Shown here: piece after piece, positions 47,088-63,183 of the stretch
How positions within the stretch are numbered: position 1 is the stretch's first letter
How the letters are laid out: each line of letters begins with the position of its first letter
Source of the DNA: a virus
Length of the DNA stretch: 64,000 nucleotides
IMG/VR virus record: IMGVR_UViG_3300032235_001069
Span: 1 to 64,000 of that record
Reading direction: 5' to 3' (one strand)
Notes under the pieces: model-generated
What the model was told of the DNA's origin: nothing
What the model saw: only the letters and a program-made list of their open reading frames with translations
The model's database searches: none
Made by a program: the position numbers and the translations under genes

Positions 47088-48278
47088 ACTTAATGATCTA
47101 ATTGAATATCACGTAGCCAAAAGAGAAAACAATACTTGGTGGACATGCAAAGAAGTAAATTCTCTTGAAGAGGCTCTTGAGACTCTACAGAATTTGAAAT
47201 TTGAAAACAAAAAAGCAGATTATCAGATTTTAAAGAAAACAACTTCCTTCGAGGTAGTTTTCCATGATTCGGCGCAAATGGATTTATTTTAATATGAATA
47301 AAATTTTATTCGTAATCGGATCAATCATACTTTTAGTTTTTGGAGGCTTGACAACTGGTCTTTTATTTGCTTATCTAATGAAGCAATGACATACCTGCTC
47401 AAGATATACAAACAAGATAAAAGAAAAAAAACTGGCTATCGTTTTTGTGGCGAGTACGAATACGATAGAAAAGACTTGCATTCAATGCATAGAGAGATAA
47501 AAGAACTACATCCTTTATATCCTCACAAAGAAGGATACATGTTTCAAGTCTTTGAAAAAGAAAATCCACCATTTGCTTCAACCAAAGATCCTGTATATCA
47601 AGCATGAAAATCTTCTTAGATGGCCACAAACCTTTTGAAAAACATTTCAAAATTAAATTTGATGAGCCAAAAATTAAAATCCATAGTAATGGATTTATTT
47701 CTGTTACTGTAGATTGGCATTCAAAGAAGGGTTGCGAGCATTTCTGGAGATTTAAATATCCAGATTTGACCCACAAAATGTTTGGCGGCGAAACAATCTT
47801 TAAAAGAAAAAAATATTTAACTAAAGCTGCGGCATTCAATTTTCCAGATCTAGATGTAGATAACGAGGATTGCAAGAAGGTGGATTTTAAAGAATTAAAA
47901 ATGGCTTCTTGGTTTGACATATGCATTGGATCAGAAACGGAAGAAGAATTTTATAAAGATAGATATGATTACATTTTCTTCGAAAGTACAAAATACGGTT
48001 TGGTTTGCTGGTTTGCTCCAGAACGCTGGGAAAATTGGGATGAAGCAAAAGATTTCGTACAATGAAACAATGGCCTAAAGTTGGTAGTAAAGTAACCTTT
48101 ATAGGTGCGCAGCATTTTTGGTTTAAAAATGTTACCAATTATGCAAATGATCTCTTGCAAGTTGGTCAAGAATATACTATATCTAAGGTAGAACCTTTGT
48201 CTAGTTGGTGCAAAATTTATTTAGAAGAGTTTCCAGATAAAATATTTTCTTTAAGTTTCTTTGATTATTAGCAAACAA

Positions 48279-48352
48279 CGATGAGTAGTTTAAGTGGACA
48301 GAACAGCAATGGACGCATTAGTGGTACACGTTCGAGTCGTGTCTCATCGACC
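48279..48352 (+). ncRNA. tRNA-like element with non-canonical anticodon arm
   Basis: CGATGAG/CTCATCG acceptor, GTTT/GAAC D stem, ACACG-TTCGAGT-CGTGT T arm, ends A-CC. Confidence 0.7.
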
Positions 48353-48526
48353 TTATTTCATCAATTACGAGAGTTAGATAGAAAGATCACTAAGATTGAC
48401 GACAACATAATATTCTGGCTTAGAATCTTTAATTACAAAGAAGCAAATAAATTAGAAAAGAGAAGAGAAACTCTTGATAAAAAGAGGCAGCAAGTTAGAA
48501 ACAAAAGAAAAAAGTATGAAGCATAA
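48281..48526 (+). CDS. basic coiled-coil ORF whose only ATG lies inside the tRNA-like element
   Basis: 81 aa open frame, no in-frame ATG after the tRNA-like part. Confidence 0.45.
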   Translation: MSSLSGQNSNGRISGTRSSRVSSTLFHQLRELDRKITKIDDNIIFWLRIFNYKEANKLEKRRETLDKKRQQVRNKRKKYEA

Positions 48527-51093
48527 AATTGCTTACAAATTCTACTCTTATGAGTGCGGAGATGGTTGTTGCGTTGAAACTGGGTACGACTGGTACGTAG
48601 ATGGAGAATTTATTCTTCGTAGTCCGAGCGAGGACGCTGGATGGATGGCGGTAATACGAAAACTAGGAATTGATGCCACATTGGTGGGGCTGGATGAGAA
48701 TGATCAAGAAATTTGGGAACTATAATATTATGGATAAAACTCCCACACCTACTCTCAAACAGAAAGTAGAACAGTACGAACTGTTCTTGCACAACATTAA
48801 CATGATGCTTGTTTCTGGAAGTATTAAAGGTGTTCAAAAACTTATTGACCATGCAGATTCTTGGTCGTATAGTCATCGAGTGGGTAACGGAGAACTTACA
48901 GAAGAAGAACAGCAAGAATTAATCAACAGAGCTTTCTGGAATCTCAATAATATTCATCTAGATTGACATGGAAAACACAAACTTTCTAAAAGAATTAGAA
49001 AAAAATCACAGAAAAGCTATCAAAGCAATCAAACACATGATTGATATTGAGGCTCAAGAATATCCTGAATATAAAGCAGCCGCAACACTGTGCAGGTTTA
49101 TTTATGATAGCGAAGATAGGTATCTACTAATCCAAGAATCTGAAAAATTTGTTTATTTCTACCAAAGCTCACATGACTTTGAAATTCTGTGCAATAATAT
49201 ATATCACTCATTGACTGATGATGGGGATATTGCCTTCGTGCAGATTAATAATCATTGCCCAGTTATCGTGTTTCAATCTCGTTGGGAGCTGAAGATTGAT
49301 GATCTCATGTCTAAAAGTGATAAGGCATTATATGAAAGATTAAATGCATTTAAAAAACGAAGAGGAATGCTTCCTCTTCATGAGAATAAAATGGTAATTT
49401 TTAATAATGCTTACGAGTATATTGAAGCGGTTAAGCAGTATCGCATAGACTCAGAAATACAGAGCAACCGATTTGAAGAATGGAAAAGGTTGAATTTGAG
49501 ATTAGCAGATAGACCACAAGCTAATTTAGATGAAGTTGACTTTGGAGCACCACATTTAAAAGAAGAATAATATGGAAATCAAACCAAAACATTTCTATTA
49601 CAACGAAACAGAAAACCGATTAATCTTTGTCTCAAAAGTCGAGAAAAGGCATGATGGAGTTGAAATCGTTTGGGCTTCCAAAGTTAACAAGAAAGATAGC
49701 ATTTATACTCATTATGCTTCTGGTTTTTTGTTTAATCATAAATTGGTAGGATTTTTAATAGAATAATATATGGGTAAATCAAACTACAAACTATCAGACG
49801 AACAAAAGAAAGAATTAGATATCGTTGCTGAAAAAATGATTGAAGAGCTAGAAAATAGGTTGAGCGCTGTCGTAGGAGATATTTTAGATCCATACGATGG
49901 TCGCAAACTAGATAATAATAAACTTACTGCCATGATGCGGCATGTTGGTGATCAGATAGCTTCTTATTGATATGACAGAAGAAGCCAAATTCCAAAAACT
50001 CTTTGAACAGAATGAAAAAGAAATAATTAAATGTCTGATCAATGAGACTAAAGAGCTTTATGACAAACTAGAAGCTTGGGAAAAGTGTGCTGAAAATCTT
50101 GTTGACTATGCTCATGAATTTGTGCATCAATTATCATTATGGGGCAAAGGTTACGATAGAAATGATAAACAAATTAAGCTTGCAGAAGACGCTATTGCAG
50201 AGTATATTAGATTGAAAAATGAAACGAAACCTAATGAATGAATTGAAAGAAGGTATCGATGCATTGACTTATTTAGCCACTAATATGAAAGTTTACCTTG
50301 TAATTGGTCACAGTAATATTTACGGCAGTGATGTTCATAGCGTTCATCAAACAAAAGAATCAGCTGAGATGCAACAGCAATTCTTAGAGGAATCTGACAA
50401 TAAAGAAGAAGGAAAGTTCTATTTGGTTGAAGTGTTTGAAGTTGAGAATATAAAATAATAAATATGGCAATTGAAACACATTTCGACGCATGGATAAGAT
50501 TCCCAGTGATCTCCGAATATGATCATGGGACGTTTGATCGTTTACATAAATTGCTTGGTTCGGTAGAAGATATCGAATATAGCTTTGCAATTGAATTCTC
50601 CTGTGGAGATGGAAAATATCTATCAGATCTAGACACAAAAGAGGAAATAGAAAAGTATGATGGTAATGTTTGTCTACTTACTCCTCCTCGTCTTAATGTA
50701 ATTAAGATGTCTCAGATGCCAGAGCAAATGAAACCTAACAAAGATTACCGCTTTACTGTCAAATATAATCCCAAAACAGAAGAACAAATCTTCTACATCA
50801 ATAGTAAAGTAAGAAGCAGAAAAGAAATAAGAAGATAATTTCGGGCTAATGAAATTAAATTATCTAATAATCTTTGTTAGTCTTGTATTAATAGACATTG
50901 TCTACATCTTTTATCTTAAGTATGTAGCTCAAAACAAAATAAATAAAGCATCTAGCTGGGCATCAGTTGTTACTCTCTTGAATGGAATTATAATCATTAA
51001 TTATTCCTCCGACATTTATAGCGTACTTTCTGCGATGATTGGCGCATATGTTGGCACTTTCATCTCAATGAAATTCTTTAATAAAGATTAAAA

Positions 51094-63108: not shown

Positions 63109-63183
63109 TGGTGGACAGGATGAGACTCGAACTCATAACCAACGCCTTAAAAGGGCGCTGCTCTACCATTGAGCTACCTGTCC
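63109..63183 (-). tRNA. tRNA-Lys(TTT)
   Basis: GGACAGG/CCTGTCC, GCGCC-CTTTTAA-GGCGT, CCA. Confidence 0.92.

Follow-up and report, generated by a model that had tools for sequence, protein, structure and literature searches.

A tRNA-shaped element that doubles as the beginning of a protein-coding gene is found in the phage genome fragment recorded in IMG/VR as IMGVR_UViG_3300032235_001069. The record is an 85.7-kb phage contig from lake water, about 59% complete, with tail and virion genes and eight ordinary tRNA genes called by ARAGORN; its positions 1 to 64,000, the whole stretch that was analysed, are referred to here as the window. The element (48279-48352) reads CGATGAG-TA-GTTT-AAGTGGACA-GAAC-A-GCAATGGACGCATTAGT-GGT-ACACG-TTCGAGT-CGTGT-CTCATCG-A-CC. 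An open reading frame (ORF, 48281-48526), the only in-frame ATG, GTG or TTG of which is the ATG at 48281-48283, begins within the acceptor stem, and its N-terminal peptide starts MSSLSGQNSNGR... (Table 1). The arms and the 3' end that a prior, sequence-only reading of this DNA had listed are all present where it placed them, and its claim that the anticodon region cannot form the canonical stem with U33 is borne out: this region has 16 nucleotides in place of the usual 17, lacks U33 and has no 7-nt loop. At the 3' end of the window's copy A-CC is followed by T, hence the full CCA is missing; A-CCA is encoded in full in most relatives. The CCA is encoded in all eight of the ordinary tRNA genes of this phage.

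The features of a canonical cloverleaf (7-bp acceptor stem, D arm, T arm and elbow nucleotides) are thus all found in the element, and those of a decoding tRNA (5-bp anticodon stem, 7-nt loop, U33 and an anticodon) are not. When a 101-nt stretch is scanned, the Rfam tRNA family RF00005 matches with 35.6 bits (gathering score 29, E 1.5e-6) in an alignment that spans the acceptor, D and T arms and leaves the 16-nt anticodon-arm region as an unaligned insert; the match is better than chance would give. The same family is filtered out in a scan of 1.2 kb. ARAGORN, which the sequence-only reading had proposed as a check, does not call the window's element as a tRNA, and likewise finds no transfer-messenger RNA (tmRNA) there. 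A covariance model made for the purpose, R1, gives the element 96.3 bits. Two members of the family to be described below are called by ARAGORN, L169:2446-2518(-) as tRNA-Arg(acg) and L171:1101-1175(-) as tRNA-Ser(aga); both calls are artefacts of the substitute anticodon arm, and automatic annotation may record elements of this kind as unusual tRNAs and call the ORF as well. Around the element, scans for promoters and terminators did not rise above background.

Table 1. The element, the overlapping ORF and adjoining features in the window
Feature	Position	Strand	Description
tRNA-like element, 74 nt	48279-48352	+	71-nt cloverleaf, discriminator A and CC; from Rfam tRNA, covariance model R1 and covariation
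Acceptor stem, 5' strand CGATGAG	48279-48285	+	Partner CTCATCG at 48343-48349; holds the start codon
D arm	48288-48304	+	4-bp stem GTTT/GAAC; 9-nt loop AAGTGGACA with G18 G19
Substitute for the anticodon arm	48306-48322	+	6-bp stem 48306-48311/48316-48322, A48320 bulged, tetraloop GACG 48312-48315
T arm ACACG-TTCGAGT-CGTGT	48326-48342	+	T loop of the canonical TTCRANY form
Acceptor stem, 3' strand CTCATCG, with discriminator A48350 and CC 48351-48352	48343-48352	+	From sequence and covariation
ATG start codon of the ORF	48281-48283	+	Acceptor positions 3-5, base-paired within the fold
81-aa ORF	48281-48526	+	Residues 1-24 from the tRNA-like element; residues 20-80 a basic helical hairpin
Upstream gene, 69 aa	48062-48271	+	TAG stop at 48269-48271, in the frame of the ORF, 9 nt before its ATG
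Downstream small gene (MKHKIAYKF...)	48516-48725	+	ATG falls within the 3' end of the ORF; kept alongside the cassette in L002
Presence/absence cassette, element plus ORF	48266-48515	+	X5 contig junctions; start of L002 homology

Relatives, covariation and the overlapping protein

The same 74-nt element is present on about 40 metagenomic phage contigs. A single metagenome scan gave six loci, and a degenerate D-arm pattern matched 36 viral contigs, 35 of which have the element followed by the same protein family; two further patterns led to the more divergent members L121, L130, L141 and L169-L172. The nearest relative, L002, is identical at 74/74 nucleotides of the element and differs at ~10% of sites in the rest of the ORF, and its homology to the window starts exactly at C1 (48279). 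From the protein side, a search returned 31 homologues of 58-100% identity, in which the remainder of the protein diverges and the tRNA-derived N-terminus (the first 24 residues, MSSLSGQNSNGRISGTRSSRVSST) is kept almost invariant, a point that the sequence-only reading had proposed to check. A profile search of 1.84 billion representative proteins found 129 clusters (defined at 50% identity) at E <= 1e-3, and 54 at E <= 1e-10, with protein lengths of mostly 75-100 residues. In nearly all of the 129, both arms have left peptide "footprints", that of the D arm being xSLGGxN and that of the T arm RSSR, GSSP, SSSL or GSNP, which correspond to the T-arm variants CGTTCGAGTCG, GGTTCGAGTCC, AGTTCGAGTCT and GGTTCGAATCC, respectively. 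In homologue P0018, T16A plus V21A would mean the change of an A-U to a G-C pair in the T stem, as judged at the protein level only. Cultured phages gave no match by blastn or tblastn, and the element is absent from 185,579 species-representative bacterial and archaeal genomes; nine pattern matches in those genomes are chance occurrences without a cloverleaf.

The pattern of substitutions among the copies is that of a maintained RNA fold. Two alignments were used, a first one of 24 distinct copies and a larger one of 31 copies (28 distinct) aligned with R1. In the first, 99.4% of cells are paired, compared with 29-49% in slid controls, and both sides have changed in 12 of 20 pairs; in the second the values are 99.5% (30-49% in slid controls) and 16 of 21. 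Among the 28 copies, changes on both sides are seen in 7/7 pairs of the acceptor stem and in 4/5 pairs of the T stem, in which 100% of cells are paired. The D stem is invariant, but it was part of the search patterns and its invariance is therefore no evidence. The tertiary Levitt pair 15:48 (A15 at 48293, T48 at 48325 in the window) is G-C in 20 copies, A-U in eight and unpaired in none, and U8, A14, G18 G19 and the TTCGAGT loop are conserved. RNAalifold, given 17 diverse copies with 25-nt flanks, arrived at the cloverleaf de novo and detected no conserved feature in the flanks; a pairing of leader with trailer that would lengthen the acceptor stem was considered and rejected, the flanks being free of conserved pairing. 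The argument of the sequence-only reading that intact outer arms speak against simple decay is strengthened by these alignments, in which the outer arms and the mini-hairpin alike are kept by compensatory changes in many relatives. The comparison indicates that both are under selection as an RNA fold, and this fold is almost certainly functional.

The region that takes the place of the anticodon arm is itself structured. The mini-hairpin AATG-GACG-CATT, proposed in the sequence-only reading, is kept by compensatory changes (4/4 pairs with changes on both sides among the 28 copies, as the stem was first counted), but it is only part of the arm, which in full consists of six base pairs, a single bulged purine and a tetraloop. 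The additional pair, 29-43, was supplied by RNAalifold, with column 42 left as the bulge, and in the larger set it is C-G in 24 copies and G-C in four. Counted with all six pairs, the mini-arm has 95.8% of cells paired and changes on both sides in 6/6 pairs. The tetraloop is GACG in all copies but L010, L017 and L041. Columns 33 and 38 covary as a pair (GC in 17 copies, AU in 9, CG in 1), and because this pairing leaves four bases in the loop, decoding is ruled out.

The frame through the element is open in 39/39 loci, and in 37 of the 39 a start codon lies in frame at most 13 nt upstream of C1 or inside the stem. The starts are ATG or GTG at -10 (the commonest position), -13, -7 or -4, once at -16 and once at -28, or else at +3 as in the window. 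The placement of the start codon in the acceptor stem, to which the sequence-only reading had given prominence, therefore holds for the window, where it is the only in-frame start, but not for most relatives, which start 4-13 nt upstream of C1; about 11 of the 129 representative proteins begin M-x-S-L, which is the window's arrangement with the start inside the stem. A start codon within the acceptor stem is thus a recurring minority variant and not the family's defining feature. In ~20 of the 31 loci that have an identified upstream ORF, that ORF ends in a stop codon that overlaps the start or directly adjoins it (ATGA, TGATG, TAAATG); the window has a gap of 9 nt. Such proximity suggests that translation is coupled to that of the upstream gene.

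Pairwise diversity, averaged for each codon position, is flat over the element (0.171/0.157/0.183) and has a coding pattern downstream (0.418/0.306/0.475). Nei-Gojobori medians for synonymous divergence (dS) and for the ratio of nonsynonymous to synonymous divergence (dN/dS) are 0.27 and 0.66 in the element, and 0.74 and 0.37 downstream. AlphaFold predicts a disordered N-terminus (predicted local distance difference test, pLDDT, about 50) followed by two helices, H20-48 and H52-80, at pLDDT of about 97. Given the flat codon-position diversity, the low dS and the disordered N-terminus, what selection preserves within the overlap is the RNA fold rather than the peptide. The ORF as a whole is a real, conserved phage protein of 80-90 residues with a basic helical hairpin, and it is very probably translated. 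Searches found no PHROGs family for it at E <= 0.01 and no Pfam family at E <= 0.1; Foldseek against the PDB returned generic helical hairpins only (E >= 1), and matches in the ESM Atlas score below 0.8.

Relation to tRNA-Pro, and gain and loss of the cassette

C1-G72 together with A73 is a hallmark of bacterial tRNA-Pro. The acceptor end of the family is near-invariant among the 28 copies (C1-G72, G2-C71, A3-U70, A73). A scan of viral contigs for GTTCGAGTC...TCGACC returned many genuine tRNAs, and those that combine a CGA...TCG-A-CC acceptor with the GTTCGAGTC loop proved to be tRNA-Pro, with UGG or CGG anticodon, in 6/6 cases checked, which upholds the resemblance to tRNA-Pro remarked on in the sequence-only reading; these tRNAs share the acceptor end CGAG...CTCG-A-CCA. 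The major determinant for prolyl-tRNA synthetase (ProRS) lies in the anticodon, at G35 G36, and is missing from the element, which has no anticodon loop. A GG at columns 33-34 is not conserved either, column 33 being A in 9/28 copies and paired with column 38. Judged from these sequence likenesses, the element probably descends from a tRNA-Pro gene. No parent is seen among the phage's own tRNAs, the best of which, a tRNA-Lys, scores 41 bits with R1 versus 96 for the element.

Some observations on other tRNA sequences may be recorded here. The tRNA-Lys just mentioned, the ordinary tRNA nearest to R1, is tRNA-Lys(UUU) at 63109-63183(-) of the window. In a phage tRNA cluster on another contig, L048:2048-2181(-) opens with the same D arm (CGGCGGGTAGTTTAAGTGGAAAGAAC) and has an 86-nt match to R1 of 39.7 bits; it has extra bases mid-way and may be an intron-containing or split tRNA. 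Several contigs (L068, L070, L074, L076, L081, L085 and others) have only the 3' half of a tRNA-Pro (…GTTCGAGTCCTGTCACCTCGACC), which precedes a conserved hairpin (gccgtagattcg…tctacggc); these 3' halves probably serve temperate phages as attachment sites for integration into tRNA-Pro.

The RNA and the ORF come and go together as a single module. Contigs of the lake-water DNA run X5, from close relatives, join 48265 to 48515 and 48268 to 48516 and so lack exactly the element and the ORF, and both RNA and protein are missing from the complete relatives G001 (204 kb) and G002 (198 kb). There is no fixed neighbour gene, the context being a mosaic of small genes on the same strand. The 69-residue gene upstream in the window belongs to family cluster c3, has a weak match to phrog_3426 and is often found upstream of the cassette in other phages. 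One decayed copy was encountered: L016:2985-3180, related to the L015 copy, has a deletion that takes away the element's 5' half, and its ORF is shortened at both ends.

A candidate processing switch and its alternatives

Bacterial RNase P recognizes the 12-bp acceptor/T stack, the elbow formed by the T and D loops, and a 3' RCCA. Features of such a substrate are found in the element, namely a 7 + 5 bp stack kept by covariation, the elbow nucleotides and an encoded A-CC or A-CCA, a match that speaks of the presence of the features and not of cleavage. It is fairly likely, with appreciable room for doubt, that tRNA-processing enzymes cut the element. The more specific proposal, to which we would give slightly less than an even chance, is that the element serves as tRNA-type punctuation and as a translation switch that releases a tRNA-like RNA. 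Each transcript would have two possible fates, decided by kinetic partition between translation and tRNA-type processing; such a partition is favoured because the acceptor stem has to be opened by any ribosome that initiates or re-initiates there. In one, a ribosome, often delivered by coupling from the upstream gene, would load at the start codon, which lies on the 5' edge of the fold or shortly ahead of it, and would melt the fold, and the protein would be made. In the other, the fold would form first, burying or abutting the start site, and the host would take it for a pre-tRNA, with RNase P cleaving at C1 and the 3' end being trimmed back to A-CC(A). The cut at C1 would sever the start codon from its frame in most members, and a member of the window's type would keep a 2-nt leader. 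What remains after processing would be some 72-75 nt of stable, tRNA-like RNA, a by-product that may have a function of its own.

An extension of the proposal, which must be called speculative and unlikely, makes the locus a translation-sensing device, in which ribosome loading would yield the hairpin protein, and faltering translation an excised tRNA-Pro "look-alike" acting in trans. The trigger might be, for example, a host defence that attacks tRNAs or the ribosome, and the RNA might be a decoy or cofactor for a reader of the tRNA body or the CCA end. If true, this would be a new class of phage counter-measure placed inside a coding sequence.

Several observations weigh against the switch. 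The single-sequence folding energy of the window's copy is ordinary (z -0.26), the strong evidence for the fold being comparative and not energetic. The length of the mini-arm, its bulge and its near-invariant GACG loop are conserved and are not explained by punctuation alone: neither RNase P nor 3' processing contacts the anticodon arm. That the mini-arm is conserved though RNase P needs none of it raises the suspicion of a partner or a function for the released RNA, and suggests that a further ligand, or a role in trans, is involved. Three contigs from separate samples, L024 (1811-2070), L042 and L045, keep the whole element, its stems compensated, but have a frameshifted ORF: an A run (gatcaaaaattgg) is one base shorter, and the conserved C-terminal KKRKQVR motif continues in another frame, as might result from transcriptional slippage, from programmed frameshifting or from decay to a pseudogene. 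Conversely, the tRNA-coded part is lacking in a few proteins and in L016; together with the L024 clade, these indicate that the two readings of these nucleotides can exist apart. Contigs from the metatranscriptome X19 extend over 48304-48721 and run across the element's 3' edge at 48350; if RNA-derived they represent uncut message, though contigs are silent on RNA ends and abundance. The RNA-run contigs come down to those of X19, over 48304-48721 only, as X20 is probably DNA.

Some of these same observations lend themselves to a different account, in which a trans-acting tRNA mimic is the main product and the element, an anticodon-less look-alike of tRNA-Pro, acts as a decoy, sponge or cofactor. 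Candidate targets are ProRS and its editing factors, EF-Tu, defence toxins that modify the CCA end or cut the acceptor, and the phage's own hairpin protein; the ORF overlap would be a matter of genome economy or co-expression, and the account overlaps with the functional by-product envisaged for the switch. Conservation of the full three-dimensional signatures of tRNA (including the 15:48 pair and the elbow), an invariant acceptor end of the tRNA-Pro type with CCA encoded in most copies, the near-invariant GACG loop and conserved bulge that processing enzymes do not need, and an element left intact where the ORF is frameshifted (the L024 clade) all agree with a mimic. They are to be set against the lack of an identified partner or fixed neighbour gene, a protein that matches no recognizable RNA-binding family, a loop that differs in L010, L017 and L041, and no sign of an accumulating free small RNA in the contigs, which cannot show ends. 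We regard the mimic as main product as somewhat unlikely, and the data fit a processing switch somewhat better than a decoy. A purely cis-acting translational brake, which would work without cleavage, with the protein made solely through upstream coupling and the tRNA shape a historical accident, is quite improbable. Consistent with it are the start at, or mostly within 13 nt before, the 5' edge of the acceptor stem, the upstream stop that often overlaps the start, and the X19 contig that bridges the 3' edge. A simple hairpin would suffice as a brake, yet the tertiary pairs, the elbow, the 12-bp stack and the encoded CCA are kept, features that matter only to factors that recognize tRNA.

The remaining alternatives fare much worse. 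Compensatory changes in 16/21 pairs and 99.5% pairing across divergent phages contradict the idea of a decaying tRNA-Pro pseudogene overlapped by a chance ORF, to which the non-canonical anticodon arm, the lack of an ARAGORN call and the ordinary folding energy might otherwise seem to point; the remodelled arm covaries, the ORF is conserved in 129 clusters, and among the relatives none was found with a normal tRNA at this place (a normal tRNA-Pro there was what the sequence-only reading had named as the mark of a recent pseudogene). The likelihood of this explanation is practically negligible. If the element were a functional tRNA that decodes with an unusual anticodon loop, such as a tRNA-Arg(ACG) as in L169, it would be understandable that ARAGORN calls two members, but the two calls, tRNA-Arg(acg) and tRNA-Ser(aga), disagree, most members including the window's are uncalled, and a 16-nt arm without U33, in which the 33-38 pair leaves a 4-nt loop, makes decoding very improbable. 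It is just as hard to credit a site that acts at the DNA level, such as a copy of a host tRNA gene that serves as target for attachment, recombination or homing. L002 homology that starts at C1, a cassette present or absent en bloc, and the likely attachment sites formed by tRNA-Pro 3' halves in other phages are what one would expect of such a site; the stems, on the other hand, change as compensating pairs and are not kept as sequence, the element occurs in 0 of the 185,579 species-representative genomes, and no integrase is nearby.

The element is undescribed in Rfam, Pfam, PHROGs and the literature searched in full text. A large survey of structured RNAs in IMG/VR covered intergenic regions, and those of its passages that concern tRNA-like RNAs are without this element (PMC10690425). 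In these sources no described case was found of a full, covariation-supported tRNA cloverleaf that constitutes the start and first 24 codons of a conserved gene of a double-stranded DNA (dsDNA) phage. Searches for structured RNA that are limited to intergenic regions miss such elements, and the family, present in dozens of uncultured phage genomes, is invisible to standard annotation, appearing as a hypothetical protein or a mis-called tRNA-Arg or tRNA-Ser. It offers a natural system in which to study the competition between ribosome loading and RNA folding or processing, and it shows how overlapping constraints on RNA and protein have been resolved, with the peptide left disordered. It is possibly a new kind of tRNA mimic in phage-host conflict.

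Among known systems, the t-elements of plant mitochondria are tRNA-like structures that set the 5' and 3' ends of mRNAs (PMC1920247). Like the phage element they are tRNA-shaped, non-decoding folds inside a messenger, used as punctuation by tRNA-processing nucleases. They lie in untranslated regions that adjoin coding regions, whereas the element of this dsDNA phage is inside a coding region and over an initiation site, and its processing is putative. At the 3' end of MALAT1 and in MEN-beta, RNase P cleavage yields a matured long RNA and a small, CCA-tailed tRNA-like RNA (mascRNA in the case of MALAT1). RNase P processing of Malat1 is referred to in PMC13170383. The cloverleaf of mascRNA, with its reduced and non-decoding anticodon arm, is similar to that of the phage element; unlike the latter it is eukaryotic, at the 3' end of a non-coding RNA, and overlaps no ORF. 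Among phages themselves, C4 RNA of P1 and P7 and CI RNA of P4 are non-tRNA transcripts with tRNA-like features that are matured by host RNase P. These are antisense or immunity RNAs, non-coding and only partly tRNA-like, without the full cloverleaf and elbow of the element described here.

Mimicry of tRNA within a messenger is also known from viral 3' tRNA-like structures of the turnip yellow mosaic virus (TYMV) type (reviewed in PMC5723415) and from hepatitis C virus (HCV) and interferon-alfa-5 (IFNA5) mRNAs, which have tRNA-like, RNase P-sensitive structures near the AUG (PMC4565877). The likeness to the phage element extends, for HCV and IFNA5, to the proximity of the mimic to the start codon. 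All of these belong to RNA viruses or eukaryotic mRNAs and are pseudoknots or loose resemblances without descent from a tRNA gene, whereas the phage element is a cloverleaf that appears to be tRNA-derived. Structured RNA and a small ORF are found on one transcript in the dual-function RNAs SgrS/SgrT and RNAIII/hld and in tmRNA. For tmRNA, the alanine identity of G3:U70 and a tRNA domain built from both ends of the molecule are required, and the phage element has neither: position 3-70 is A-U in 27/28 copies and G-C in one, with no G3:U70. The ORF, moreover, has an ordinary start codon, where the internal tag ORF of tmRNA has a resume codon. In SgrS/SgrT, RNAIII/hld and tmRNA alike, the RNA part and the ORF occupy separate segments of the molecule, whereas in the phage element the same nucleotides serve as both.

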